The notes under the pieces: generated by a model
The model's database searches: none
The model's input: the letters and a program-made list of their open reading frames with translations, nothing else
Told to the model about the DNA's origin: nothing
Program-made: the position numbers and the translations under genes
Shown: piece by piece, positions 1,995 to 16,382 of the stretch
Numbering within the stretch: position 1 is the first letter of the stretch
How the letters are laid out: each line of letters opens with the position of its first letter
Origin: Labilithrix sp.
GTDB lineage: Bacteria > Myxococcota_A > Polyangia > Polyangiales > Polyangiaceae
Direction of reading: 5' to 3'
Assembly (NCBI GenBank): GCA_044227045.1
Contig: JBGAFW010000082.1
Location: 1 to 32,000, forward strand
Length of the DNA: 32,000 nucleotides

Positions 1995-2989
1995 CACACT
2001 TCTCCTCCCAGAGTTGCGTTTCGTCCACACTCGTCTTTTGCGTTCTTGCGCGCTGGAGCCGCGCGCCGCCGCGTCGCGCGCACCAGGATGCCCGCCGCGA
2101 GGAACATCCCGACCGCGCCAAAGGAGAGCGCGCTGGTGTTGCCCGGCTGCACCGAGCAGAGGCCGGTCTTCTCGGGATCGTCGCACGACCCGCTGAAGCC
2201 GCCACGAGGCGTCGTGTTGCACGCCGCGGTGCTGGTCGACGGATAGATCGCGCAGACGGCCTCGACGTCGTCGTCGGTGAGCTTTCGCTGCGCGAGCGAG
2301 CCCGGCGAGTACGACGCGAACATGACCGCGTCGGGGTTCGGCGAGTGCGCGATGCCGATGAAGTGACCGACCTCGTGCGTGAGGATGGCTTGGAGGTCGT
2401 AGTCGACCTTGGCGGGGTCATCGGTGATCGTCACGGTGTTGTTGGCCGTGTTCACCTCGATGTCCGCGTCGTAGATCTCTCCGGTGTCGTCGTTGTACGT
2501 GACGCTCGTCTTCGCGAGCGTCCCGTCGATGCCGCGATACTTCCAGTTGTCGTCCTGAAAGAGGACGACGTTAACGTTCGGGCCCGTCTTGTTGTATTCG
2601 CTCTTCTTGCACGAGATCGGCTCGAGCTCTTGAAAGGTCATCTTCGCCGTCGTGCCGTCGGGGCACTGCACGTCGCTCCAGGCGAGGAACGTCTTCTTGA
2701 TGACGGCGCGGGTGTCGCTCGGATCCAAATCCTGCGTGCCGAGCTTGTTGGTCGCGTAGCTGATACACGACGTCGGCCAGAACAGCTTCGCGCCCGACGC
2801 CGGGCAGCTATCTTCGTCGGTCGGGCACTCCTTGGTCGCGGTCGAGCGGCAGGTCGTCGAACGACAGAACGCGCTCGCCTCGCTCACGAACGCGAGCGAC
2901 ACGCCAAGCATCGCCACGCCGACCGCGAGAGGTCGACCGAGGCGGAGACCCCGCCCGAGGCGTGCTGTGAGCTTTGACGAGCGGCCCAT
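1994..2989 (-). CDS. Matrixin-like (M10-type) zinc metalloprotease with a MYXO-CTERM-like C-terminal sorting signal
   Basis: HEVGHFIGIAH is the HExxHxxGxxH zincin motif, followed by a Met-turn candidate (DAVMFASY). The signal peptide is MGRSSKLTARLGRGLRLGRPLAVGVAMLGVSLAFVSEASA, starting at ATG 2989 (the ORF-track start 3034 is also possible). The C-terminus GLCSVQPGNTSALSFGAVGMFLAAGILVRATRRR has the Cys/hydrophobic/Arg-cluster layout of MYXO-CTERM. Confidence 0.85.
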   Translation of the reverse strand: MGRSSKLTARLGRGLRLGRPLAVGVAMLGVSLAFVSEASAFCRSTTCRSTATKECPTDEDSCPASGAKLFWPTSCISYATNKLGTQDLDPSDTRAVIKKTFLAWSDVQCPDGTTAKMTFQELEPISCKKSEYNKTGPNVNVVLFQDDNWKYRGIDGTLAKTSVTYNDDTGEIYDADIEVNTANNTVTITDDPAKVDYDLQAILTHEVGHFIGIAHSPNPDAVMFASYSPGSLAQRKLTDDDVEAVCAIYPSTSTAACNTTPRGGFSGSCDDPEKTGLCSVQPGNTSALSFGAVGMFLAAGILVRATRRRAAPARKNAKDECGRNATLGGEV

Positions 2990-3298
2990 GTTCCCAGCAA
3001 GTTCCGCTGCACGACCGATGCCAGTGTAGGACAAGGTGCGTCAGTGATGGTACCCCGATAAAACAGGGCGGCGCGAAGGCTGGGCTCGAGCGATCCGCGA
3101 CCCATGGAGTCATGGCTGGTGCAGCCCCGATCCACCGCGACGCGGCCGCCAGACCCCTTTTCGCGCATCTCTTGGGCGGGCGCGCGCCTTTGGTCCAGCT
3201 ACCCACCGTGGTTGAGGGTGGACGCCCGAGCTCGAAGTCTACGGGCGTCCGGCTTCGCGCGGTTGCACGTCGTCCCGAGCCCCGCCCTCTCCGCACAG

Positions 3299-3365
3299 GC
3301 GCCGCGCGAAGAAGGCGCCGCGCGAAGAAGCGCCGCGCGAAGAAGCGCCGCGCGAAGAAGGCGCC
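3299..3365. repeat. Tandem repeat, about 4.3 copies of a 15-16-nt unit GCGCCGCGCGAAGAAG
   Basis: Read directly from the sequence: copies at 3299-3314, 3315-3330, 3331-3345 and 3346-3360, plus a partial copy. It lies in the ~0.9-kb divergent intergenic region. Confidence 0.9.
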
Positions 3366-3950
3366 ATGGGCTCGCGGGATCGCGCGAAGAAACATGAAGA
3401 ACAAAAAGAAGAAGGTTGCGAAGCCAGGCTCTTGGCGACGCAACCTTGGAAAAGCGGAGCAGGAGCACGGAAGCGGCCAAGCCCACGATCTCGTGAGGCG
3501 CGAACCGTTGCAAGCTCGAACGGACAACCGATCAAAGCGCGCGCACGAACGAACGATGACGTGATCAAGGCCACCGGCTCAGATGGCGATTGCATCACGC
3601 GTTCGTTCGTCGGTCGTTCTCTGATCGTTCGTCTCGATCGTCGCGTGCAAAGCTGAGTGGTTCGTGCCGTGAGACCGCGAAGAAGCGAGCGTCGAGTGAC
3701 TCAACTAGTCTCCGCAGAAAAATTAGCCATCGAGGGCGACGAAAATAACGCCGAGGAGAGGGGGAGCGGTGAGGCGTTAGCCTCGCCGCCATCGATGTCT
3801 GCTTGGAGTACTTGCTGGAGCTGTGCCGTCGTCGAGAGCCGTTCGCGCGACGCGAAGTGATGGGCCGACCACGCATGCCAAGGAACGCTCCCATGAAGAA
3901 ACACCGAGAGAAGCCGGGTGTGCCTTCGACTCGCGAAAAGCTGCTGAGTA

Positions 3951-4532
3951 TTGGTCTCAGGGATCATGAATGCTCAGGAGCCTGGTCGCCTTTTGCTCGG
4001 TCGGTCTACGATGACGATCATGGACGTTGTCGTCGTGCCACCGTCTTCCAAACGATTTGCGCGATTTGCGTCATCGAGCAGCGCACGAAGCTTGCCGATC
4101 ACGCCGTCCGCGCCGTCCGCGCCGTCCGCCGCCGCGCTCTCCATCGTGCTGATGCTGGCATCCACCAGCGCCTGCAGCCGAACGTCCTCGACGGACGCGA
4201 CCTCGAACGATGATGCGAGCCGAGCAACATCGACGACGCAGTCACCCTCACGCGTCGGCTCGTGCGACCGTGTAGTCGCAACGGGGACGTGCTCCGAGTA
4301 CACGGGCACCTACCTCGCCCAGAACGAAGTGCTCCTCACGTCCACGTGCGCCAAGCTCGGCGGCACGTGGGTCTACGCCGAGTGCCCAAACACCTCGGTC
4401 GTCGGCAAGTGCTCGCTCTCGACGACCGAGGTGCGCAAGTTCTACGGAACGGGCGCCGCCTCCTACGAGCCCGACAAGGCAAAGACCGAGTGCGAGACCT
4501 CGTTCCGCGGCACGTGGCAAGTCCACCGCTGA
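3951..4532 (+). CDS. Hypothetical small Cys-containing secreted/lipoprotein (start uncertain)
   Basis: ORF-track entry. It has a hydrophobic stretch ending in Cys (AALSIVLMLASTSAC) and then a compact Cys-containing domain (CDRVVATGTCSEYTG...CAKLGGTWVYAECPNTSVVGKCS...ECETSFRGTWQVHR). The competing antisense ORF 3974..4309 is less protein-like. Confidence 0.5.
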   Translation: MVSGIMNAQEPGRLLLGRSTMTIMDVVVVPPSSKRFARFASSSSARSLPITPSAPSAPSAAALSIVLMLASTSACSRTSSTDATSNDDASRATSTTQSPSRVGSCDRVVATGTCSEYTGTYLAQNEVLLTSTCAKLGGTWVYAECPNTSVVGKCSLSTTEVRKFYGTGAASYEPDKAKTECETSFRGTWQVHR

Positions 4533-4564
4533 ATGTGCCGCAGACGCCGAGAGAGCGCGGCACC

Positions 4565-5880
4565 GCTTCAACAAATGGCCGCGAAGCACCTTGGTCGACC
4601 AAGGTGACTCAAGCGAGCTCGCGGCACCCTTTTCAACAAATGTGTTCGTCGATTGGAGGTAAGCGTTCAGTCAAACGCGTACACGATAGCGACTGCCGAT
4701 CAGCCGCGCGCGTCAAGCGTGAGCCGGCGGAAGACGTTCGCGTTGAGGAGAGCGTGGACCTCGTTCAGCACGGAGGTCTTCTTCCATTCGCGAGCTCGAG
4801 CAGGCGGTGCGATGGCCACTTCGTCGATTGGAGCGGTGGCTCGCCGCTCGGTCGGGCGGCCACCGAGGTCACGCGCCGGACTCGTCGCCGGAGGAGCCGG
4901 ACGTGAAGCACCTTGGTTGACCAAGGTGAAACGGCGAGAGCTACCCTTTTCAACAAGTGTGATCCTCGATGCGGGTGGCACGCACGCTCGGCCGGGCGGC
5001 CACCGAGGTCACGCGCCGGACTCGTCGCCGGAGGAGCACGATGGACGCCGAGCACCTTGGTTGACCAAGGTGGTTTCGAAGTCGAGAGATCGCGGCACCG
5101 TTTTCAACAAGTGTGTTCGTCGAGTCGATCACGCGGGCCCGCGACGTCGCGTGCCAGATTCTCGCCAGACCACAACGGACGCTGAACACCCAAGGTAGCC
5201 GCCTTCTCAACAAGTGAGCTCGTACACGCGAGTGGCACGCCGCTCGGTCAGGCGGCCACCGCCATCACGCGTGAAGCACCTTGGTTGACCAAGGTAGCTC
5301 TGCACGTCGAGAGCTCGCGGGACGCTTCTCAACAAGAGGGTTCACCCTGCGGGTGGCACGCCGCACGGTCGGGCGGCCACGCGCGCCGCATGAAGCACTT
5401 TGGTTGACCAAGGTAGCTCTGCATGTCGAGGGCGAGGACGGCATACTCTTCAACAAGTGTGTTCGTCGATGATCATGCGGGTGGCACGCCGCTCGGTCGG
5501 GCGGCCACGCGGCCGCGTGAAGCACCTTGGTTGACCAAGGTAGCTGCACGTCGAGCGCGAGGAACGGCGATCTTTCTCAACAAGTGTGTTCGTGCCCGCA
5601 CGATCGAATCGGCGCGATCATCGTCCGGTCGCGCGCGAACGCGGTAAGCGTTCGGTCAAACGCGTACACGATAGCGACTGCCGATCAGCCGCACGCGAAC
5701 GCGTGAAGCACCTTGGTTGACGTAGCTCCGAACGTCGAGCGTCGCGCGCCATCACGAACGCGTGAAGCACCTTGGTTGACCAAGGTGGATCGCGCTCGAC
5801 GTTCGGCGGACGCAACCCTTCTCGACAAGTGCGTTCGTGATCGTGCGGGTGGCACGTCGCTCGCGAGCTCGGTCACGGTG
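4565..5880. repeat. Mosaic tandem array of 8-9 units of about 120-147 bp, each carrying a 20-bp palindrome plus two further conserved modules
   Basis: Module P is (GT)GAAGCACCTTGGT(T/C)GACCAAGGT(G/A), at 4583, 4903, 5050, 5271, 5391, 5517 and 5762, with truncated copies at 5183 and 5703. Module B is C(C/T)TTTCAACAAGTGTGTTCGTCGA, at about 4628, 4944, 5098, 5201, 5324, 5446, 5571 and 5816. Module C is GCGGGTGGCACGCCGCTCGGTCGGGCGGCCAC, at about 4834, 4971, 5231, 5349, 5477 and 5845. A 50-nt module (4658-4707 and 5643-5692) matches at 49/50. A block of at least 41 nt is identical at 4857-4897 and 4997-5037. No ORF is consistent across the units. Confidence 0.9.
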
Positions 5881-6015
5881 ATTGCGATCGTCGGCGACGT
5901 TCGTGCGATCGCGTTGCGCGGTCGGTGGGAGAAAGTGGAAGGGAAGGGTCGCAACGGTTGAAACGAGCGCTTTGGCGCTGCAGGCTTCGGTGGCTACGTG
6001 CAAGGAGGACGCGAC

Positions 6016-6927: not shown

Positions 6928-9141
6928 TCAGTGGCCGTGGAACTCGCGTGACTGCTTGATCACGAATTGGTTGTTCTCGAGGAACTTGAACTCGATGTCG
7001 AGGCTTCGCGGCTTCTGGTCGTCGATCCAGACCCAGTTGCAGTCGCCGTTGTAGTAGCCCGGCTTCACCTTGCAGTAGGCCTTCTCGACCGCTTTCCCGA
7101 GCTCGACGACCTGGCTCATCTTCGTGTCGTCGAGGACGCTCGAGGTGAGCTTCGGGCCGTTCGCGACCGGCGTGGCGTAGCGGACGAGCGTGAAGCGCGT
7201 CGGGCGATCGTCGCCGCTGAACGTCGCGAGCGTCATCTGTGAGATCGTGCCCGGGTCGGGGTTCGTGACCAGGTTGTTGTCTTTCTGCAGCGACAGCGTG
7301 TACGCGAGGACGTCGCTGTTGATGGCGCGGGTGATGAGTACGCCGTTGGCGGCCACTTCGCTCTCCGTGTCGTACGCGGGCACGATCGCGATGCCCATGC
7401 TGACGGTCTCGTGATCGAGGCGGGCATACGAGCGCTCTTCGATCGCGCGGGTGTTCCAGAGGCTCGCGAAGACGCCTTTGATTCCGCACTGCGGGGTCTT
7501 CGGCTTGATCTCGAGCTTCGTGACGACGCCGTCCGGCTCCTCTTCGATGTGACAGCTCATCTCGGGGTTGTCGACGCTCGAGAGCTTCACGCTGAAGCTG
7601 TCGTGGAGGCCTGCGCCGTCGAAGTTCGGGATGTCTTCTGCGTTCGCGCTCGAGCGGAACTTCATCTTCTCCATCTGCGGCTCGAGCTGCTTCAGCTTCG
7701 CGACCTGTGCGTTGACGGCGGCGAGCTGGGCGGCCGGGACCTTCGACGTGTAGAAGAGCTGCTGCACCGCGAGGCTGAGCGTCTTCCGCTCGTTCGGCGA
7801 GAGCGTGCCGGCCTTCTCCTTCGTGACGAGCTCGTCGATCTTCGCCTTGAGCGCGGTGTTCTCCGGCGCGTTGACGAAGTCGCGGTACCATTGCGTCGGG
7901 ATCGCGAAGCCGTTCGGCGTGAGGTCGTAGCCAACCTTGGCGCTCTGCGAGCCTGTTTGTGCCTTACGGCCGAGGACGCTGCGGTTCGAGAGGAAGCCGA
8001 GCATCGCCGCCTTGCCGCCGAAGCGGTTGCCGTTCTGCGTGCACGCCGTCGTGAGCGTCTTGCACATGTCGTCGTACCACACGAGGTTCGGCTCGTTGAC
8101 GGCGGGCAGGGGCTGCCAGGGCTTGTTCGTACGGTCGTGGAGCTTTTGCTGCACGATCGCGTCGGTGGTCGCTTCGATCGTGTAGCCCGACTTGCCGACG
8201 ACGAGGTGAACCGGCTTGTCCTTGAACGGCGCGAGCTGCGCGTTCGTCGGCGAGGCGTCGCGCATCACCATGTTCGGCGTGCCGCGCTCCTTCGACTTCA
8301 GGTTCACGTGCGACGTGACATCTTGGTAGACCTTCGTGATCGTGCCGGCGACGACGGACAGATCGAGCGGAAGCTCATCGAACACGACGATGTCGGTCGG
8401 GCGGATCTCGCCGAGGTCCGTCGGGAAGATACGGAGGTAGCCCCACGCCTCTCCTGGATTCAGCGGGAGGTACTTCACGCTGCCGAGCACCTGATCGATC
8501 GTGAGCGCGTCGTAGCCGAGGGTCGCCAGCTGCGGCTTCACCGTCGCGAACGTCTGCTGCGGACCGCCCGACACCCAGGCCATCTTGGCGTTCGGGATCG
8601 CGATCGCCGACTTCAGCGTCTTGATCAGCTCCAAGATGCCTTCTTCGTGCGCGACGTCGTCGGGATAGAGCTGCACCGCGTAGGTGAGCTGCCCGTTGAT
8701 CTCGTAGGTCTGGATCGTGCCGGCGTAGTAGCGCTTCGCGTCTTGGAAGTAGGTGACGTCGTTGAAGTCGCCGTTCGACTCCGTGATGCCGAGCTGCTTC
8801 TTGGCGAAGTTGTAGTGGTACTTCGCGTATTCGGGTGTCTCACCGCCAACTTTGTAGTTGCCGTTGATGAAGTACGGCTTCTTGTGCGCCGGATCGCGCG
8901 CGTCGATGAAGAACTTCATCAGCCGTCCGGCCTGACCAAAGCCGCCGCCTTCGATCGAGAGCGACTTGTACGTCGCGGCGCTCTTGATCTTCGTCACCGA
9001 GAGTTGCGTCGACAGCTCGTCCTCGGTGTAGTCCGCGTCTTCCTCTTCGGTGTCGGATGCACAACCGATCGAGAGAGCAGAGGCCGTGAGCGCGAGGCTG
9101 AAGGTGAGGAGAAGCGAGCGGAGGAAAGTTCGGGGAGCCAT
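6928..9141 (-). CDS. Lipoprotein with a PEP-utiliser mobile (phosphohistidine) domain and a PPDK_N/ATP-grasp-type PEP/pyruvate-binding domain
   Basis: I place the start at ATG 9141..9139 (MAPRTFLRSLLLTFSLALTASALSIGC/ASD, lipoprotein signal). VVAGTITKVYQDVTSHVNLKSKERGTPNMV resembles the TSH..ARE.GIP swivel-domain motif. GGKAAMLGFL and KFRSSANAEDIPNFDGAGLHDS resemble the GGKxxxL and RSSxxxED...F.G motifs of PpsA/PPDK/rifampin-phosphotransferase N-domains. Confidence 0.85.
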   Translation of the reverse strand: MAPRTFLRSLLLTFSLALTASALSIGCASDTEEEDADYTEDELSTQLSVTKIKSAATYKSLSIEGGGFGQAGRLMKFFIDARDPAHKKPYFINGNYKVGGETPEYAKYHYNFAKKQLGITESNGDFNDVTYFQDAKRYYAGTIQTYEINGQLTYAVQLYPDDVAHEEGILELIKTLKSAIAIPNAKMAWVSGGPQQTFATVKPQLATLGYDALTIDQVLGSVKYLPLNPGEAWGYLRIFPTDLGEIRPTDIVVFDELPLDLSVVAGTITKVYQDVTSHVNLKSKERGTPNMVMRDASPTNAQLAPFKDKPVHLVVGKSGYTIEATTDAIVQQKLHDRTNKPWQPLPAVNEPNLVWYDDMCKTLTTACTQNGNRFGGKAAMLGFLSNRSVLGRKAQTGSQSAKVGYDLTPNGFAIPTQWYRDFVNAPENTALKAKIDELVTKEKAGTLSPNERKTLSLAVQQLFYTSKVPAAQLAAVNAQVAKLKQLEPQMEKMKFRSSANAEDIPNFDGAGLHDSFSVKLSSVDNPEMSCHIEEEPDGVVTKLEIKPKTPQCGIKGVFASLWNTRAIEERSYARLDHETVSMGIAIVPAYDTESEVAANGVLITRAINSDVLAYTLSLQKDNNLVTNPDPGTISQMTLATFSGDDRPTRFTLVRYATPVANGPKLTSSVLDDTKMSQVVELGKAVEKAYCKVKPGYYNGDCNWVWIDDQKPRSLDIEFKFLENNQFVIKQSREFHGH

Positions 9142-9321
9142 GACGGTTGCGGTCAGTCTTGCAGCCAAGACGCGGCGCGCAACTACACAGGCGCACATTT
9201 GACGACCCTGGAATTTCGAAGCATCGCCCCGCCTAAAAACGCCGCAAAAATCGATGGATCGGCCAAATCCCTGGACGGCTCCGATCCAGGTTTTCGCGGG
9301 CTCCGCGCCGATTTTCGGGCG

Positions 9322-9926
9322 CCACTTCGGCAGAGGCCAAGTCACTCGCTCTGCCGAAGTCGCCTGCTACTTCGGCAGAGGCGAAGTCACCCGCTCTGCC
9401 GAAGTCGCCTGCTACTTCGGCAGAGGCGAAGTCACCCGCTCTGCCGAAGTCCCCCGCCACTTCGGCAGAGGCGAAGTGCTCTGCCGAAGTCGCCCGCTAC
9501 TTCGGCAGAGGCGAAGTCACCCGCTCTGCCGAAGTCCCCCGCCACTTCGGTAGAGGCGAAGTCAGCCGCTCTGCCGAAGTCGCCCGCTACTTCGGCAGAG
9601 GCGAAGTCAACCGCTCTGCCGAAGTCCCCCGCCACTTCGGCAGAGGCGAAGTGCCTGGGCCGAAGTCCCGCCACTTCGGCAGGCAGAGGCGAGTCGCCCG
9701 CTCTGCCGAAGTCCCCGCCACTTCGGTAGAGGCGTCAGCGCTCTGCCGAAGTCGCTCTCGCCGGCAGAGGCGAAGTCAACCGCTCTGCCGAAGTCCCTCG
9801 CCACTTCGGCAGAGGCGAAGTGAGCCGCTCTGCCGAAGGCCCGCAACTTGATCCTCTCGGGCGTCCACTTCGGCAGAGGCGAAGTCAACCGCTCTGTCGA
9901 AGTCCCCCGCCACTTCGGCAGAGGTC
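9322..9926. repeat. Tandem array of about 14 copies of a 45-bp self-complementary unit
   Basis: The unit is ACTTCGGCAGAGGCGAAGTCACCCGCTCTGCCGAAGTC(G/C)CC(T/C)GC(T/C)A. ACTTCGGCAGAG starts at 9324, 9369, 9414, 9459, 9499, 9544, 9589, 9634, 9673, 9720, ~9761, 9803, 9867 and 9912. ACTTCGGCAGAG and CTCTGCCGAAGT are exact reverse complements. Copies of 39, 40 and 47 nt break every reading frame. Confidence 0.95.
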
Positions 9927-9938
9927 GCGCTGCTGGTC

Positions 9939-10688
9939 TTACTTCACGATCGCGGCGACCGCTGCGGCGAGCGCCAACAGGATCGCGAGCACGATCGCGA
10001 GGAGCTTGATCGACGCCATCGTGCGCGGAGGGACCGCGCTCGACTGTACAGCCTTCGACTTCGTCTTCGCCTTCGGGCGCTCCTCGGCGATGTCGTCGGC
10101 GTCTTGCTCGCTCGCGTCGATGTCCTGCGACGTCGCGGCGATGCTGTCCGGGATCTCTTCGTTGTGCGCCTTCGCGCGCTTCTTCTTCTCTTCCGAGCGT
10201 GACGTGGCGGACGCAGGCGCCGCTTGAGGATTCTTGCGTGACGCAGGACCTGCCGCGCGGCCCTTCTTCGACTTCTGCTTCTGCCGCATCGCCGCGGCGC
10301 GCGGGCGCTGGCGCTGGCGCTTCGCCTCGAGCTTCGCGCGTTTCTTTTCTTTCTTCTTCGCGGCGCGTTCGTCGCGAGCCTTCTTCGCCTCCGCGAACGC
10401 GACGTGATCGAGCCGCTCGTCCGGGAGCTCCGGCTCGGGCTCGTCGTCGTCGTCGTCGTCGTCCTCCTCTTCACCGGGGAAGAGATCGTCGAGCCATCCT
10501 TCATCGAGCTCGTCGACGTTCGGATCGGAGGGCTCGGCGACGACGTTCGAAGCAGCGCCCGCGGGCTTGTCGTCCGTGGGATCGTCCGCTCTCAGCTTGG
10601 CGTTGGGCGGAGGTGGCGTGGCCCAACCATCCTCGAGCTCTTCGAGGAGGTCGCGTGAGCTATCCAGCCGGTTCCGTTCGGTCGCCAT
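9939..10688 (-). CDS. Highly charged, low-complexity protein with a C-terminal transmembrane anchor
   Basis: The ORF starts at ATG 10688. It has an acidic N-half (two E(D/E)GW motifs, a D8 run), a K/R-rich middle (AKKKEKKRAKLEAKRQRQR) and a C-terminal hydrophobic helix (IKLLAIVLAILLALAAAVAAIVK). It lies 38 bp downstream of the response regulator on the same strand. Confidence 0.7.
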   Translation of the reverse strand: MATERNRLDSSRDLLEELEDGWATPPPPNAKLRADDPTDDKPAGAASNVVAEPSDPNVDELDEGWLDDLFPGEEEDDDDDDDEPEPELPDERLDHVAFAEAKKARDERAAKKKEKKRAKLEAKRQRQRPRAAAMRQKQKSKKGRAAGPASRKNPQAAPASATSRSEEKKKRAKAHNEEIPDSIAATSQDIDASEQDADDIAEERPKAKTKSKAVQSSAVPPRTMASIKLLAIVLAILLALAAAVAAIVK

Positions 10689-10726: not shown

Positions 10727-11200
10727 CTATGTCGTGCTCGTGCTTCGTGGCGGATGCGTGAGCCGACCGACGATTCGGCGTACCAGCTCGGCGGGCAAGA
10801 TGGGCTTCACGAGAAAAGCATCGCAGCCCGATCTCCAGGCGTTCATGCGGTGCTGCTCTTCACTGAACCCCGTGATCGCCATCACGTAGATGTCCCGCGT
10901 CCGCGGATTTTCTTTGAGGCGGCGCGTGGCCGTCCATCCGTCGACGTTCGGCATCGCGAGATCCATGACGACGACCTCGGGTCCGGGCTCCTCGGCCTTC
11001 TTGATCGCCTCCGCGCCGTCATGGGCGACGATGACGCGAAAGCCCGCGAAGCGAAGGTAGTCGGCGTAGATGCGACGGGTGTCTTCGTAGTCGTCGACGA
11101 CGAGCACGAGCGGGACCTTGTTCGCGCTCGCGACCGGCGTCGCGGCGAGCATCGACGAGCTGGACCTTCTGTTTCGCAGGCGCGGCACTATCCCAATCAT
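10727..11200 (-). CDS. Single-domain CheY-like response regulator
   Basis: Receiver-domain signature: LVLVVDDYEDTRR..., VVVMDLAMPNVDGW (phospho-acceptor Asp), MAITGF, DAFLVKP. The start is ATG 11200 (or 11152); the ORF-track N-terminal extension is rejected. Confidence 0.85.
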   Translation of the reverse strand: MIGIVPRLRNRRSSSSMLAATPVASANKVPLVLVVDDYEDTRRIYADYLRFAGFRVIVAHDGAEAIKKAEEPGPEVVVMDLAMPNVDGWTATRRLKENPRTRDIYVMAITGFSEEQHRMNAWRSGCDAFLVKPILPAELVRRIVGRLTHPPRSTSTT

Positions 11201-11380
11201 GACGCTCGACGCGCGATCGGGAAATGAGGTTCTTCGCCGCGAGGAGAGGTGAGGAGAGGGTAGGCAGAGGTGAGGCCCCGCGGTGGTCCGCGATCTGAGG
11301 AGAAGACGTCGATCGCAGAGCCGCTGACCATGAACGGCACGAATGAGCGAGCCCTCGATAGCCACACCGCCGAGCGAGGC

Positions 11381-11455
11381 AGAAAAACAAAAAACAAAAA
11401 ATGCGGAAAAACAAAAAGCCACGAGGGCGAACCGGTCATCCGGTCGCCCTCGTGG
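11381..11455 (-). terminator. Rho-independent terminator for minus-strand transcription
   Basis: The hairpin at 11419-11455 is CCACGAGGGCGAACCGG-TCAT-CCGGTCGCCCTCGTGG (about 16 bp, one bulge). On the minus strand it is followed by CUUUUUGUUUUUCCGCAUUUUUUGUUUUUUGUUUUUCU (11418-11381). Confidence 0.8.
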
Positions 11456-13860
11456 GAGCTCGCTTTCCGTGGGGGAGCGTCTTAACCCATTGTGGATTCA
11501 TTGTCCGCCCCGTTGGACGTTGCACTGAGGAGGCCAATCCCGCCTGTGCCATCGTCGCATTCGTTGTTGGGTGCCTTCACTGCAATCCCGGTTATTCGCG
11601 TAACCAGAAGAGAGGAGGGTCGACGAAGCTATTCGCTGTCGTCAGCTTCAGCCGATCGCGATGTGGCGCACCTCTGGACCGGCGCCTTTTACGCGCCGAG
11701 GATGCTGACTCCCCGTGATCGTTCTCCGATCTTGTGGAGCCTTCACCAAACCGTGTCGACCTCTGACGTTCCCACTGTCGCCCGCAGGCACAGCCGAGTC
11801 GGAGTCCGTATCCGCCCGATCTGCTGTCCAGCAATCCAAAGCGTCTTGCGACGATTGAATTGAGGAGTTGACCTACGAGCCCGAGGACTTCTGCTTCGCC
11901 CGACCGGTGAAAGTCAGACGGGCATCAGCCCGAGAACGCCTTCTATCGTATTGAGAACCTGCAAGCCGAAACCTACAGGCCATGCACACGAAGACTTTTA
12001 AGAATCGTGCACACGCGCACTGTTTCGCCTTCTGCCCACTCACGATCCTCGTCAGAAGGATCTATGAGCTTCTTCCTGGCTAGCGCCCTCTCGTACCAAC
12101 AGGCCTTGCGACCTCCCGGTAGAAAAGACGCGCAATGCGTCCAACCGATGTCTGCCACCCAAACGACTTGCGTGCACCCGCACCTCGTGAGCTCCCAGCG
12201 TCTCTCCAGATTTTCACCTGGTGACCACCCCGCAGAGTCTTAGGCTCTGCGCAGTACGACTGGGGGACGGAACGTTTCACGGCGTTCCTCATGTCCGCTT
12301 CGGCGGATCGTCATCGCAACACTTCCTAACGGACTCGTGCTCGCTTGATCTTGCGATCCTCTGCGGCGCGAGCGTGGGCGTTTTCTTCCCACGGTGTTGA
12401 TGCGATCGAGCCTCTGACACTCCTGTCGTAATCTCCTCTGGTTCACCCTCCGCCTCGCTCGTCTTCACGAGCGCTGCGTCTTGGCCGTCCGTTCTTTCTC
12501 TCCCGATGCTGGGAGTTGAAAGGGTTCGTACGGGTCGGAGGATGCGGAGACCACCAAGACCACTCCTATCGCCATCTCGTGAAAGACGACGCTTCGTTGT
12601 GGCCCGGAATGCCTTCCACCGTTAGGGACTCTTCGTAGGATCCGGTGGTCCTTACAACCCCGGTCCCGCGACCCACTCACCACTTTTGGCGATGCGTGAA
12701 CCGCTGAATGACACTCTCGCGTCACCCTGAGCCTTCGTCGATTCTCTCCCGTCTTTACCGGTGAGATCGACTCGCGACTTCCTTTCACCCGACGCGCCCG
12801 CCGACGGTTTCACCCGCCGATTTTCGCTCCGAGCTAGATCCCTGTTCACTCGACCCTGGCCGCTCTTTTTGGAGCGCGTTTGCCGAGCTTATTCGAGACC
12901 AGTTATCGCCTAACGACTTCTGCAACTGCACTTCGACGTGCGGGCAACCTAACCCGGACTCTCTGATCCTCGCAGGGACGAAGGCCTCGACCTTCTTCCT
13001 TTTCTGAGCTCATCACGCCCTCTGCCTTGCGACAGCGGTGATGAGTGGCGAGCCGCGCTACGTCCGTTCGAGAAAACCCCAGTGTTGGTTCTTCTCGGTT
13101 ACCCGAGCTTGCCCAACCGTGATGCTCTCCCGCCCGCCCCACCATCTCGAGCTTGCGCCCGGGATGTGTAGTGAGGATTGACGTGCACGGGTCGAAGGAC
13201 CGAGCGAAGGACGCGTCCTCCGGTTCATTCGTACGATCTCTCGTGCGGATGCGGAGTGCATACGCTTTGTGGCGCATGCTGACGGCGTTCCCCTCCTCGG
13301 CGTCCTTCGGACATCCGCTGTCATCGGCGCGCCTGCTTGCAGAGGGGGATACCTCTGCCCGCATTCGGACCGACCAAGACCCTCTTTCCAACGACGACCC
13401 GCGAAGGTCGCCGCCTTTCAGAAGATCGGGATGCCTTTCCCCGTCACGACATACGAAGGAGTCTTTGATTGCGCGAAGAGGCTTGCACCTCTCCGGCCTT
13501 CGTACCGGCTCTCTCGCTCACGCCGCTCACACGTTGTTCCTTCTCGCGAAGGAGTCGTGCTTGTTGTTCGAGCATTGCAAGTGTCACGGTGCGGTCACCC
13601 GCTCCATCCGCGACTGTTCGAGAGTGCAGACGCCTTTGTGACTCGTTGGTACTTCCGCGCCTGGACCTGACGACCCAAGCACGCCACCGAGCTCGACCGA
13701 CTCAGCCGTCGACGGGAACAGATTGTCCCGCTCGCACTGATGCCAGTCGCAGCGCCTAGACGGCTTCTACGACCGAGAGCCCGCGGCCCGATGTGCCGCG
13801 AACTTCATGAGCGGTTTATGCCCGAACGCGTTTGGCCTCGCAACAAAATAAATCGCTGCT
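11400..13860 (-). ncRNA. Candidate large (~2.4 kb) structured non-coding RNA of unknown class; 5' end not defined
   Basis: No ORF exceeds 162 aa in any frame. Hand counts give ~60% GC, against ~67% in a coding sample. The + strand is ~62% pyrimidine in two 120-nt samples. Six GNRA-capped hairpins read on the minus strand, at 11842-11853, 12102-12113, 12347-12358, 13022-13035, 13478-13491 and 13538-13553. A sarcin-ricin-like GGUACGAGAGGG lies at 12086-12097. An intrinsic terminator marks the 3' end. I saw no universal rRNA motifs. Confidence 0.5.
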
Positions 13861-13871
13861 CAATCACTTTT

Positions 13872-13892
13872 TTATCCACAAGGTTATCCACA
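13872..13892 (+). promoter_or_regulatory. Two perfect consensus DnaA boxes (TTATCCACA) in direct tandem
   Basis: TTATCCACA at 13872-13880 and 13884-13892, separated by AGG. Confidence 0.75.
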
Positions 13893-13982
13893 GCGCGCGT
13901 CACATCGTGATCGCACGCGACGCACGCGGCGTCGTGTTTTTAGGCGAAATTCTGCGTGTGGCCGGTTCGGGATGCTGGCGCC

Positions 13983-14062
13983 TGTGGAAAACAATAACGT
14001 TTGATTGGTATCGCCAATCGAAACAATAGTGTTTGATTTTGATGATTGAAAACGTGATTGAG
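13983..14062. promoter_or_regulatory. AT-rich tract with an inverted DnaA-like box and GATTG iterons; possible promoter region or unwinding element
   Basis: TGTGGAAAA at 13983-13991 is the reverse complement of TTTTCCACA. GATTG occurs at 14003, 14044 and 14056, CAATC at 14015 and GATTT at 14034. GATTGG-N5-CCAATC is an inverted repeat. The stretch is far more AT-rich than its surroundings. Confidence 0.5.
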
Positions 14063-14234
14063 AGCGCGCGCCGTAACAAGACCGAAACAAAGCGCTAACC
14101 AAGAATTTTCAAGCGCTCACGCATGCACGCTGAGTCATGCGAACGACCCGCTCGAGGCCCACTGCGGCGGGTCACCTCTGCCATCTCGACACACGTGGAT
14201 CCCGCTTCGTGCGGTGGCGTGCGAGCGAGTGGGC

Positions 14235-14243
14235 TGTGGATAG
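14235..14243 (-). promoter_or_regulatory. DnaA-like box (CTATCCACA, 8/9 match)
   Basis: The + strand reads TGTGGATAG, about 90 bp upstream of the dioxygenase start. Confidence 0.35.
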
Positions 14244-14333
14244 ATGCCTCCGCGGGACTGTTCGCCGGGTGGAACAATCTGGTGCCTCTTGCGGCGCTTG
14301 TTTCAGAGGCGCCGAATCACCATCCTTGTCCTC

Positions 14334-15158
14334 ATGAGCAGCGAAGTGACGAAGCCGACGCGAATGCCGACGCTCTACATTCCGCACGGTGGCGGTCCGT
14401 GCTTCTTCATGGAGTGGACGATGGGCCCGCGCGACACGTGGGAAGAGATGGCGGCGTTCCTGCGCGGCATCCCCAGAGCGTTACCGCAGACGCCGAGGGC
14501 GCTGCTCGTCATCTCCGCGCATTGGGAGTCGCGCGTCCCGACCGTGATCTCGTCGAAGGCGCCGCCGCTGCTCTTCGACTACTACGGCTTTCCGAAGCAG
14601 ACGTACGAGCTCACGTGGCCAGCGCCCGGATCGCCCGAGGTCGCGGCGCGCGTAGAGGAGCTCCTCGCCAAGGCAGGCATCGAGACGAAGCGCGACATGG
14701 AGCGCGGCTTCGACCACGGCGTGTTCATCCCGCTGAAGGTCGCGTTCCCGAACGCCGAGATCCCCACCGTTCAGCTCTCGCTGCAGGAGGGCCTCGACCC
14801 GAAGACGCATCTCGCGATCGGTCGCGCTCTCGAGCCGCTTCGCGACGAGGGCGTGCTCATCATCGGAAGCGGCATGAGCTATCACAACATGCGCGGCCTC
14901 ATGCAAGGCGGCGGGCTCGGGCACTCGCAGCGCTTCGACGACTGGCTCGGCAAGACGGTGAGCGATCGAGACATCGCCGCCCGCAACGAGGCGCTCGCGG
15001 AGTGGTCGTCTGCGCCCTCCGCGCGTGAGTGCCATCCGCGCGAAGAGCACCTGCTTCCTCTCATGGTCGCCTGCGGCGCCGCCGGGGACGACGCGGGCGA
15101 ACGCGTCTTCCGCGACGAGGTGATGAACGCTGTCGTGTCCGCAGTCCGCTTTGGCTGA
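14334..15158 (+). CDS. Class III extradiol ring-opening dioxygenase (LigB/DODA/YgiD-type)
   Basis: MPTLYIPHGGGPCFF..., FDYYGFPKQTYEL, RGFDHGVFIPL and IIGSGMSYHNMR are typical of the 4,5-DOPA-dioxygenase-like family. The start is ATG 14334 (or 14364). Confidence 0.85.
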   Translation: MSSEVTKPTRMPTLYIPHGGGPCFFMEWTMGPRDTWEEMAAFLRGIPRALPQTPRALLVISAHWESRVPTVISSKAPPLLFDYYGFPKQTYELTWPAPGSPEVAARVEELLAKAGIETKRDMERGFDHGVFIPLKVAFPNAEIPTVQLSLQEGLDPKTHLAIGRALEPLRDEGVLIIGSGMSYHNMRGLMQGGGLGHSQRFDDWLGKTVSDRDIAARNEALAEWSSAPSARECHPREEHLLPLMVACGAAGDDAGERVFRDEVMNAVVSAVRFG

Positions 15159-15170
15159 TCGTGCAGACGC

Positions 15171-16382
15171 CTAAGGCGTGACGTTGGCGAACACCGCCGT
15201 CCTGCTCTCGGGCAGGCGTGTCCAGCGGAGGTTCGACTCGATGCTCGTCGCGTCGGCGGTGGACCAGCGGACATCGCTTCCGCTGTTCGCGACGGGGAGG
15301 AGCTGCACTTGACGGAGCTTCAAGGATTGAGGGTCGAAGAGCGCGCGGCCGATGAAGTTCTTGGCCTGCGCGCCGAGAGAAGGGTGGAGGAAGTTGCCGA
15401 GGCTCTCGAAGACGACGCCTTTGCCGCTTCCGTCCTTCTTGCGGACGACGCGGACGGGCTTCCACACGTGCGGGCCGCTCCCGTAGACGACGTCACCGCC
15501 GAAGTCTTCGACGAACCGCACGCCGGTGCGAACGAGCTCGTCTTGGTCGGTGGGACCCATCGAGTGGAGCGCGAGGATGCGTAGATCGGCCTGCGCGGCT
15601 CGAAAGCTGCGGAAGAGCGCGTCGGTGTCGCCGGCGCATCCCGCGCGCGGACAGTCGGGGCGGCCAAGGTAGAGGCTGCCGAGCGCGACGCGGACGGTGC
15701 GTCCTTTGATCGTGAAGGCGTGTACGCTGACGCGGCTCGCGTCGTTGCGGTCGGCGCTCGCGGAGATGCCCGCCGTCGCCCAGTCCATGTCACCGAGGGC
15801 GGCGAGGCTCTTCGCCGTCATGTCGGCGCTCGCGACCTCGCCGTGCTCGCTCGTCTCGTTCGACGCGTAGCAGTCGCGCGAGTGGTTGTTCGACATGCCG
15901 ATGAGGTTGAAGCCCCGTTCGTGTGCTTGGGTCAGGTTCTCCGGGCGCGAGACGAAGGCATACGACCTCCCCGGCGAGTACGCGGTGCCAAACTGCGTGC
16001 AGCCGTTGCCGACGACCGTCTCCCAATTGATGAAGGAGAGATCCCCTCGGTAACCTTCGCCGGTGCGATCGAAGCGATCGAGCGCGGCGCCGAACTGCGC
16101 AGCGATCGGGACCTTCTCGTGCGTCTTGCTCCAGCCCGAGTCACCGACGCCGCGGACGTCGATGAAGCTCACGTGCGCGTGATCGAGCGGCGCGGCCGCG
16201 AGCGAGGACGCAGGCGCCGTCTCATCCGGCTGCGTGATCGCGACGAGCGCGCTCTCGTTCTCTGCCGGCTCGCCGTCGGTTGGGTCGACCGCGTCGCTCG
16301 CGGGGTCCTCCGCTTCGTTCGCTCCGCACGCGACGCCGAGGAGAAGGAGAAGGAGAGTGGAGAGGGCGCGAGAGGGGTGCAC
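15171..16382 (-). CDS. CapA/PGA_cap-family metallophosphatase-like lipoprotein
   Basis: GTG start at 16382. The signal peptide and lipobox are LLLLLLGVAC. SFINWETV, MSNNHSRD, LHSMGP, VVYGSGPHV and FESLGNF correspond to CapA-family motifs. Confidence 0.8.
   Translation of the reverse strand: MHPSRALSTLLLLLLGVACGANEAEDPASDAVDPTDGEPAENESALVAITQPDETAPASSLAAAPLDHAHVSFIDVRGVGDSGWSKTHEKVPIAAQFGAALDRFDRTGEGYRGDLSFINWETVVGNGCTQFGTAYSPGRSYAFVSRPENLTQAHERGFNLIGMSNNHSRDCYASNETSEHGEVASADMTAKSLAALGDMDWATAGISASADRNDASRVSVHAFTIKGRTVRVALGSLYLGRPDCPRAGCAGDTDALFRSFRAAQADLRILALHSMGPTDQDELVRTGVRFVEDFGGDVVYGSGPHVWKPVRVVRKKDGSGKGVVFESLGNFLHPSLGAQAKNFIGRALFDPQSLKLRQVQLLPVANSGSDVRWSTADATSIESNLRWTRLPESRTAVFANVTP

Follow-up and report, generated by a model that had tools for sequence, protein, structure and literature searches.

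What does a bacterial chromosome encode where about 2.4 kb of it carries no recognisable protein gene? The question is raised by positions 11381-13860 of the window analysed here, that is, the whole of a 32,000-nucleotide stretch of Labilithrix sp. DNA (contig JBGAFW010000082.1 of GenBank assembly GCA_044227045.1); the genus is placed in the Myxococcota, Polyangia, Labilitrichaceae. In an original prediction, made from the letters of the window, the segment had been proposed to harbor a giant structured non-coding RNA (ncRNA) on the minus strand. The analysis reported here indicates that the locus is probably a single-copy chromosomal gene for an undescribed structured ncRNA of ~2.3 kb, a judgement that includes its inferred mode of action, and the RNA very probably constitutes a new class of structured ncRNA. 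The element in question is the following:

11458-13798, minus strand: giant structured ncRNA of ~2341 nt, delimited by syntenic alignment, contig ends and the consensus fold

Conservation of the locus was followed with a synteny anchor, the gene that diverges from the RNA; contigs encoding homologues of its product were fetched and compared.

14334-15158, plus strand: LigB-family extradiol dioxygenase gene, divergent from the RNA (Pfam PF02900; NCBIfam 4,5-DOPA-dioxygenase-like, under the family cut-off)

A gene-free gap of ~3 kb lies ahead of the LigB gene in L004 (an 891-kb JGI contig) and the near-identical Logan contig L005, in L006 and L009, which are metagenome-assembled genomes (MAGs) of Labilithrix sp., and in L140/L141, and positions 11411-13894 of the window can be aligned with it over their full length (74-76% identity, ~2500-2600 columns). 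The conserved unit accordingly spans 11411-13894 and the RNA proper ~11458-13798, so that the segment first delimited as 11381-13860 is real while its limits shift. The RNA region is found at one syntenic site in 8 other genome-derived sequences (6 full length, 2 partial), all of them Labilithrix MAGs or metagenome contigs, with 72-83% nucleotide identity; they include the full-length copy of the Labilithrix MAG L015 (79%). Five full-length genomic copies are likewise 72-83% identical among themselves, with invariant blocks of at most 32 nt. The identity of the RNA unit equals or exceeds that of the flanking coding genes (LigB, 73-77%; response regulator, 73%). In L001, a near relative, as much of the element as can be aligned shows 98% identity, and the combined alignment including LigB 95%. 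The LigB loci L003, L008, L010-L012, L139, L142 and L143 were set aside as non-syntenic; they have no gene-free gap and the RNA is unmatched there. A scan with an invariant 20-mer over one genome per GTDB species returned 6 matches, of which 3 are Labilithrix MAGs; the other three (Cellulomonas, Gemmatimonadetes and Flavonifractor) were discarded as chance. The RNA was also unmatched in viral contig, phage and plasmid collections. The locus is single copy and chromosomal, between complete genes at a fixed site, and the RNA is specific to Labilithrix-type myxobacteria (Polyangia, Labilitrichaceae). The original prediction had made conservation in relatives a point to be checked, and the unit is conserved end to end at the syntenic loci.

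A metagenome collection was in addition scanned with an invariant central 21-mer:

12373-12393, minus strand: 21-nt hairpin CGUGGGAAGAAAACGCCCACG, the search key; without variation across the 5 full-length genomic copies, whose recovery did not depend on the key

At least 120 contigs carry the element, and their identity at 12373-12393 is by construction, because they were selected with that key. All of the 120 contigs listed carry the element and none exceeds 2484 nt. Their ends are not scattered: 56 of the 120 start -2 to +6 columns from 13798, typically with CGGCACAUCGGGCC, and 7 reach further upstream; 46 end within 3 columns on either side of 11458, typically with ...CCCCCACGGAAAGCGAAC, 22 more stop within the 5' arm or the loop of the terminator described below, and one passes it. 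Full-length molecules measure 2247-2422 nt (median 2322), and clustering of the 125 sequences at hand gives 84 groups at a 90% identity threshold and 16 at 80%, with a lowest pairwise identity of 51%. Since random genomic fragments would not cluster in this manner, and genomic contigs run into the neighbouring genes, we infer that the fixed-end contigs are assembled transcripts. The fixed, transcript-like ends of these at least 120 contigs point to a discrete and probably abundant RNA, which would accumulate to high levels and both ends of which may be trimmed, to ~13798 and ~11458.

The region 11458-13798 is not coding. The longest open reading frames (ORFs) overlapping 11381-13860 are the two of 162 aa already named in the prediction (12903-13391, minus strand, and 13153-13641, plus strand), which overlap each other, and the longest stop-free stretches of the RNA locus are similar to those in shuffled sequence. 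The third-position GC excess is flat over 11100-14400 (at most 0.15, the three frames being indistinguishable) and reaches 0.3-0.6 in the neighbouring genes. No ORF is common to all 37 full-length homologues, the best being one of 47 aa in 28 of the 37; a 13-codon ORF at the 5' end of the RNA (AUGAAGUUC...) was rejected, its AUG reading AUC in L006. Column variability among the homologues has a period-3 power of 2.9-3.3 times the median, which is no three-base signal; for the LigB gene next to it the value in these genomes is 67. Six-frame translations of 11200-14400 with stops masked gave zero Pfam matches and no protein remnant, so the frameshifted homology that would have betrayed a decayed gene did not appear. 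The segment is thus ORF-free as had been claimed, and lower in GC as well (0.594 across 11381-13860 vs 0.646 for the whole window, a ~65%-GC one). Its minus strand is purine-rich in the direction that had been stated, with 55.6% purine overall, but the figure of ~62% given at first is true only locally (plus-strand purine is 0.38-0.45 over 12000-13800).

A consensus fold was computed by RNAalifold on a non-redundant alignment of 37 sequences (A2). It holds 789 pairs in 173 helices with 41 hairpin loops, 68% of the positions being paired, and it is organised in three domains, each closed by a long-range helix, and a 3' tail:

12951-13788, minus strand: Domain I, ~826 nt; 13-bp closing helix 13788-13775/12963-12951 with 3 compensatory pairs, 87% canonical
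12174-12948, minus strand: Domain II, ~749 nt; closing helix 12948-12934/12187-12174 of 13 bp, 98% canonical, with 5 compensatory pairs
11556-12172, minus strand: Domain III, ~618 nt; closing helix 12172-12156/11573-11556 of 16 bp with 11 compensatory pairs
11466-11549, minus strand: 3' tail with two conserved hairpins (11549-11522 and 11517-11466), containing the 25-nt block UAAGACGCUCCCCCACGGAAAGCGA
13748-13779, minus strand: 32-nt block CUCUCGGUCGUAGAAGCCGUCUAGGCGCUGCG near the 5' end, partly in the closing helix of Domain I

Both blocks are invariant in the five full-length genomic copies, and an invariant helix joins the 5' end of the RNA to its 3' region. Over the whole fold 94.3% of the cells are canonical, compared with 87.0% in shuffles and 38-43% when the partner is slid by 1-3 columns. 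Compensatory changes are found in 435 pairs (shuffles 221±8; slid 167-216) and in 2068 cells (shuffles 551±24, with a maximum of 611 in 200; slid 347-451). In Domain III taken separately (212 pairs), 95.4% of the cells are paired (shuffles 88.7%; slid 38-43%), 114 pairs have changed on both sides (shuffles 56.7±3.9; slid 32-42) and so have 543 cells (shuffles 140±11.7; slid 66-84), neither of the last two counts being reached in any of 500 shuffles. A structure-independent test gave the same picture: by mutual information with average product correction (APC), in a separately built alignment of 119 sequences, the fold accounts for 45 of the 50 highest-ranking pairs and for 74 of the first 100, out of ~2.7 million possible ones. 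Compensatory-only counts and APC-corrected mutual information had replaced a first helix-scan score, which was dropped because it also ranked many spurious long-range helices, an inflation suspected to arise from purine/pyrimidine-variable columns plus G.U pairing. Conservation is strong in structure as in sequence and covariation is massive, about 68% of the nucleotides lying in helices that compensatory changes support; structural conservation had been another of the checks called for.

The same fold identifies the RNA strand. Its paired cells are 13.9% G.U and 1.6% A.C, so that the canonical share of the fold, 94.3% on the minus strand, would drop to 82.0% if the plus strand were the RNA, and the minimum free energy of Domain III is -269.4 kcal/mol on the minus strand (z = -5.36) and -201.5 kcal/mol on the plus strand (z = -0.20). 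Because of this G.U/A.C asymmetry, the folding energy and the orientation of the promoter and the terminator, the RNA is assigned to the minus strand, in agreement with what had been predicted.

The original prediction leaned on hairpins capped by GNRA tetraloops, listed by number, and most of it holds. When only Watson-Crick pairs are allowed, in stems of 4 bp or more, 6 GNRA-capped hairpins occur on the minus strand of 11381-13860 and 0 on the plus strand, a count that is indeed above chance (0.63±0.85 in dinucleotide shuffles, with 0 of 300 reaching 6); some of the hairpins that had been listed as clean need a G.U pair. Ten hairpins are GNRA-capped in most of the 37 sequences, 3 of them in 36 or more, two of which in all 37; an eleventh is GNRA in about half of the copies, and one hairpin has a UUCG loop. 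Among them are:

12706-12727, minus strand: 9-bp hairpin with a GAGA tetraloop, GNRA in 37/37; top score of an unbiased helix scan, 99% canonical, 9/9 pairs varying
12102-12113, minus strand: GCAA-capped hairpin (earlier no. 2), GNRA in 36/37
11842-11853, minus strand: GCAA/GCGA-capped hairpin (earlier no. 1), GNRA in 30/37
12347-12358, minus strand: GNRA-capped hairpin (earlier no. 3), GNRA in 28/37 (GUGA, GCGA, GCAA)
13022-13035, minus strand: GCAA-capped hairpin (earlier no. 4), GNRA in 23/37
13478-13491, minus strand: GCAA-capped hairpin (earlier no. 5), GNRA in 30/37

Five of the six hairpins first described are therefore kept as GNRA in 23-36 of the 37 homologues; for the sixth (13538-13553) the stem is kept via compensatory changes but its loop is not GNRA in the homologues. 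The two extra stems that had been pointed out, 12231-12251 and 12457-12472, are conserved. Of the unpaired positions of the fold, 44% are A.

As a separate observation, CGCG is invariant (37/37) in two hairpin loops of different domains (13403-13400 and 11600-11597, minus strand), and GCUAGC is invariant at the junction 12079-12084. They might serve for kissing contacts, either inside one molecule or from one to the next; being invariant, they offer no covariation to judge by.

The unit is bounded by signals for transcription on the minus strand:

13815-13843, minus strand: inferred sigma-70-type promoter, with -35 TTGCGA (13843-13838), a 17-nt spacer and -10 CATAAA (13820-13815)
13799-13823, minus strand: conserved leader/promoter-core block GGGCAUAAACCGCUCAUGAAGUUCG, adjoining the 5' end; one variable position among genomic copies (alignments A1, A3)
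11419-11455, minus strand: intrinsic terminator hairpin, 16 bp, G+C-rich, with one bulged U and loop AUGA, followed by U5-G-U5 at 11417-11407
13872-13892, plus strand: two perfect DnaA-box sequences TTATCCACA-AGG-TTATCCACA, 82-94 nt upstream of the RNA 5' end
13983-13991, minus strand: third DnaA-box-like site TTTTCCACA, ~193 nt upstream; it reads TTATCCACA in L004 and L015

The arrangement TTGnnn-N17-CATAA stands at -45 to -47 from the 5' end of the RNA in 7 of 7 genomic loci and also in contig L107, which suggests a sigma-70-type promoter with a start near 13808; a generic consensus promoter scan called nothing at its threshold. A sigma-54 reading of the conserved -25 block was rejected by eye, its GG-to-GC spacing being 2 nt short. 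At the other end, the intrinsic terminator that had been claimed is present and conserved, with compensatory changes in L004 and L006; a simple terminator scan missed it, probably because of the bulged U in the stem. Upstream of the promoter, two TGTGGATAA boxes (the DnaA-box consensus) occur at ~-94 and ~-82 in 7 of 7 genomic loci, with fixed positions, and the third box, near -193, in 6 of 7. From these sites it is possible that the RNA is controlled by DnaA or by another protein that recognises the box sequence.

Being non-coding, conserved, covarying, strand-defined and provided with a promoter and a terminator, the locus has the operational attributes of a structured ncRNA gene. None of the refuting conditions named in advance was observed, so far as sequence analysis could address them; what proved wrong in the original prediction is confined to its precise limits and the sarcin-ricin likeness. 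As to how the RNA may work, it would be transcribed on its own from the TTGCGA-17-CATAAA promoter, with the DnaA boxes upstream, would stop at the intrinsic terminator and, by analogy only, would act as a folded particle, serving neither as messenger nor for antisense regulation. Such an architectural RNA could build a large ribonucleoprotein (RNP) or RNA-only assembly via tetraloop and A-minor contacts, and the particle is possibly tethered to the membrane by a tail-anchored basic protein encoded downstream:

9939-10688, minus strand: gene for a 249-aa tail-anchored protein rich in lysine and arginine (K/R-rich), just downstream of the RNA on the same strand
10727-11227, minus strand: gene for a response regulator (stand-alone receiver domain), flanked by the RNA and the 249-aa protein gene

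The 249-aa protein gene lies beside the RNA in the window, L004/L005, L006, L009 and L140/L141, and is absent at every LigB locus without the RNA; the response regulator gene stands in between in the window, L004 and L015; L006, L009 and L140 lack it there. The protein is unmatched in Pfam and NCBIfam. Its family comprises 67 proteins at E<=1e-6 among 5.8 billion, characterised (alignment A4) by two ...(E/D)GW motifs, a stretch of acidic residues, a conserved K/R-rich helix of ~50 residues and a C-terminal transmembrane tail. As a candidate RNA-binding membrane tether, recalling OLE and OapA, it is only a lead, and a role as partner of the RNA must be considered doubtful.

By analogy with other large RNAs, an architectural or RNP mode of action seems the most likely one, if somewhat short of an even chance. 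The wider proposal of a new cellular RNA machine, megadalton in size and rRNA-like, catalytic or self-assembling, with a dedicated tail-anchored basic protein and transcription wired to DnaA, is rather unlikely. If this holds, no larger structured RNA outside the ribosome would be known from bacteria, and a new class of RNP would have been found. The RNAs with which it is compared, OLE, ROOL and GOLLD, have already brought a surprise, namely nanocages made of RNA only. A ~2.3-kb RNA with rRNA-like domains and hundreds of covariation-supported pairs, apparently very abundant in soils, suggests that little-studied phyla with large genomes still hide complex RNA machines. For structure modelling there are more than 100 natural variants, the ends, the promoter and the terminator are defined, the genus is cultured, and one candidate protein partner (the 249-aa protein) and one candidate regulator (DnaA) are at hand.

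The overall judgement gives the well-supported identity of the RNA more weight than its inferred mechanism. Several points weigh against this interpretation of the locus. The function is wholly inferred. The linkage between protein and RNA is no more than a lead because synteny is conserved generally across the clade and a single narrow clade is concerned. The cultured type species L. luteola is not among the exact 20-mer matches. The RNA origin of the at least 120 contigs was deduced from their lengths and ends, not from sample type. The percentage of paired cells is inflated because the fold was derived from the alignment used for counting, a circularity by which the compensatory counts and the mutual information are less affected. 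Support for the closing helix of Domain I is moderate, and covariation cannot support the helix that closes the 5' and 3' ends, since it is invariant. Finally, palindromic loops that covary, a sign of homo-oligomers, were not found among the homologues, where only the uninformative invariant CGCG loops occur.

Among the alternatives, a ribozyme or catalytic RNP core, whose active site would be set in place by the multi-domain fold, as it is in RNase P, group II introns and rRNA, is improbable. The size, the three domains and the invariant loop and junction blocks are features such as large catalytic RNAs have, and the conserved GNRA loops and A-rich unpaired positions would suit one too; against it stand the lack of similarity to the catalytic families of Rfam and a locus that offers no substrate context, with no interrupted gene, tRNA neighbours or processing site. 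Moreover, OLE, ROOL and GOLLD, which are also large and ornate, are so far without a described function and were shown as assemblies by cryo-electron microscopy (PMC12286853).

It also seems improbable that the RNA is a regulatory decoy or sponge like CsrB or 6S, sequestering copies of a protein, or ribosomes, by repeated motifs. A repeated motif does exist: a junction module, an unpaired RAA followed by a helix starting with GGC, recurs 7-11 times (11 sites, 11578-13637, minus strand), GAAGGC is present 7 times where 1.4 would be expected, the 37 homologues have 7.4 copies on average, and most sites are >90% conserved. A Shine-Dalgarno-like block, AGGAGGGGAACG, is at least 95% conserved over the 37 copies, and high abundance would suit titration. 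The RAA/GGC motif nevertheless sits at helix junctions and not in exposed loops, and for that reason looks like a structural module, and a sponge does not need long-range helices, three closed domains and ~10 tetraloops under strict covariation.

It is very improbable that the RNA belongs, in a very divergent form, to a known family (a 23S fragment, a group I or II intron, OLE, GOLLD, ROOL or HEARO). rRNA and introns likewise have multi-domain folds rich in GNRA loops, and a 10-nt match to the sarcin-ricin core had been noticed at 12086-12097. That match, GUACGAGAGG, is found in the window only, the homologues keeping just GAGGGCGCUAGCC; the sarcin-ricin loop AGUACGAGAGGACC of 23S/LSU (RF02541) is not conserved, L004 having GUCCACGAGGG and L006 CUCGAAGAGGG, and the resemblance is a chance match. 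None of the 4227 models of Rfam 15 matches the window at the gathering score or at E<=10, with only noise returned, and none matches 8 divergent homologues at E<=5; the covariance models of OLE, GOLLD, ROOL, HEARO and raiA gave nothing above noise, and literature searches retrieved no description of such an RNA. The RNA is accordingly unassignable to a known class, as had been stated from the start. There is no intron-encoded protein, there are no flanking exons, and the taxon and context are unlike those of the phage-borne GOLLD and ROOL.

Comparison with individual families makes the distance explicit. OLE, of ~600 nt, is found in extremophilic or anaerobic Firmicutes and is membrane-associated via a dedicated membrane protein (OapA). 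Like OLE (RF01071), the present RNA is a large, ornate, conserved, stand-alone and apparently abundant bacterial ncRNA, and where OLE has its membrane protein a conserved tail-anchored basic protein, which may or may not contact the RNA, is encoded nearby here. There is, however, no match in sequence or structure, the present RNA is ~2340 nt long and belongs to Labilitrichaceae, and the neighbouring protein is not in Pfam or NCBIfam. Prophages and tRNA islands are the characteristic contexts of GOLLD and ROOL, the oapA operon that of OLE and IscB that of HEARO; none of these is seen here, the neighbours being LigB, the response regulator and the basic membrane protein, and a tRNA/tmRNA scan found none in the window. 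GOLLD, ROOL and OLE measure ~600-800+ nt and form homo-oligomeric assemblies by cryo-electron microscopy, and none of them has a described function so far; GOLLD and ROOL, of ~660-800+ nt, occur in phages and prophages near tRNA islands and form homo-oligomeric cages (PMC12286853). With GOLLD (RF01998) and ROOL (RF03087) the present RNA shares a giant, ornate, multi-domain build, discovery by comparative or metagenomic means, abundance and the lack of a known protein partner; it differs in being ~3 times longer, chromosomal, without tRNA neighbours, unmatched in the phage, viral and plasmid collections, and without covarying palindromic kissing loops. At ~2.3 kb it does exceed OLE, GOLLD and ROOL in size, as had been anticipated. 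The 16S and 23S rRNAs are of a similar size class and resemble it in domains closed by long-range helices, many GNRA loops, A-rich unpaired positions and abundance, but no SSU or LSU (small- or large-subunit rRNA) model of Rfam matches, and the locus is single copy, outside an rrn operon, without a tRNA or 5S neighbour and confined to one bacterial family. Group II introns are also large multi-domain RNAs with GNRA tetraloop-receptor contacts; here there is no match to the D1-D4, domain V/VI or other intron models of Rfam, no reverse-transcriptase ORF and no interrupted gene, and the locus is single copy at a fixed site.

It is likewise very improbable that the selected element is DNA, replication-origin-like or DnaA-titrating, with incidental transcription. 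All 4 sites with at most 1 mismatch from TTATCCACA in the 32-kb window lie in 13872-14243, where 1.1 would be expected window-wide, and these four DnaA-box-like sites stand beside an AT-rich stretch with direct repeats. The boxes are, however, outside the 2.3-kb unit, conservation inside the unit obeys RNA pairing, including strand-specific G.U, and no dnaA, dnaN or other origin-linked genes are in the window. A decayed protein gene or mobile-element remnant with incidental hairpins is effectively refuted, for although other non-coding-looking stretches show that gene-free DNA is not unique to the RNA locus, those are unconserved in L004/L006, and here the six-frame Pfam search is empty, there is no period-3 signal, compensatory changes are massive, full-length conservation reaches 72-83% across species, and the locus is single copy with no transposase or reverse transcriptase nearby among the window proteins.

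The stretches in question, 2850-4050, 4500-6000 and 9000-10050, are also without codon periodicity. In the syntenic L004 and L006 they are not conserved, only ~4282-4517 matching, inside a small L004 gene, and they resemble variable spacer or inserted DNA.

The ~370-bp intergenic region between the RNA and LigB is AT-rich, with a GC of 0.49 over 13801-14100. In its AT-rich part the direct repeat AACAAT-N3-GUUUGAU occurs twice (13990-14039), is kept in L001, L004, L006 and L009 (A3) and may be a binding site for some factor. Just upstream of the LigB start, an inverted repeat ACTGTTC-N8-GAACAAT (14257-14278) is present in all five genomes and looks like an operator for the dioxygenase gene. On the other side of LigB, L001 carries a 2.7-kb Ser/Thr protein kinase-TPR gene (2496-5165 of that contig) between LigB and a PGA_cap gene; the window is without this gene (15159-15174), L001 being its closest relative at ~95-98% identity.

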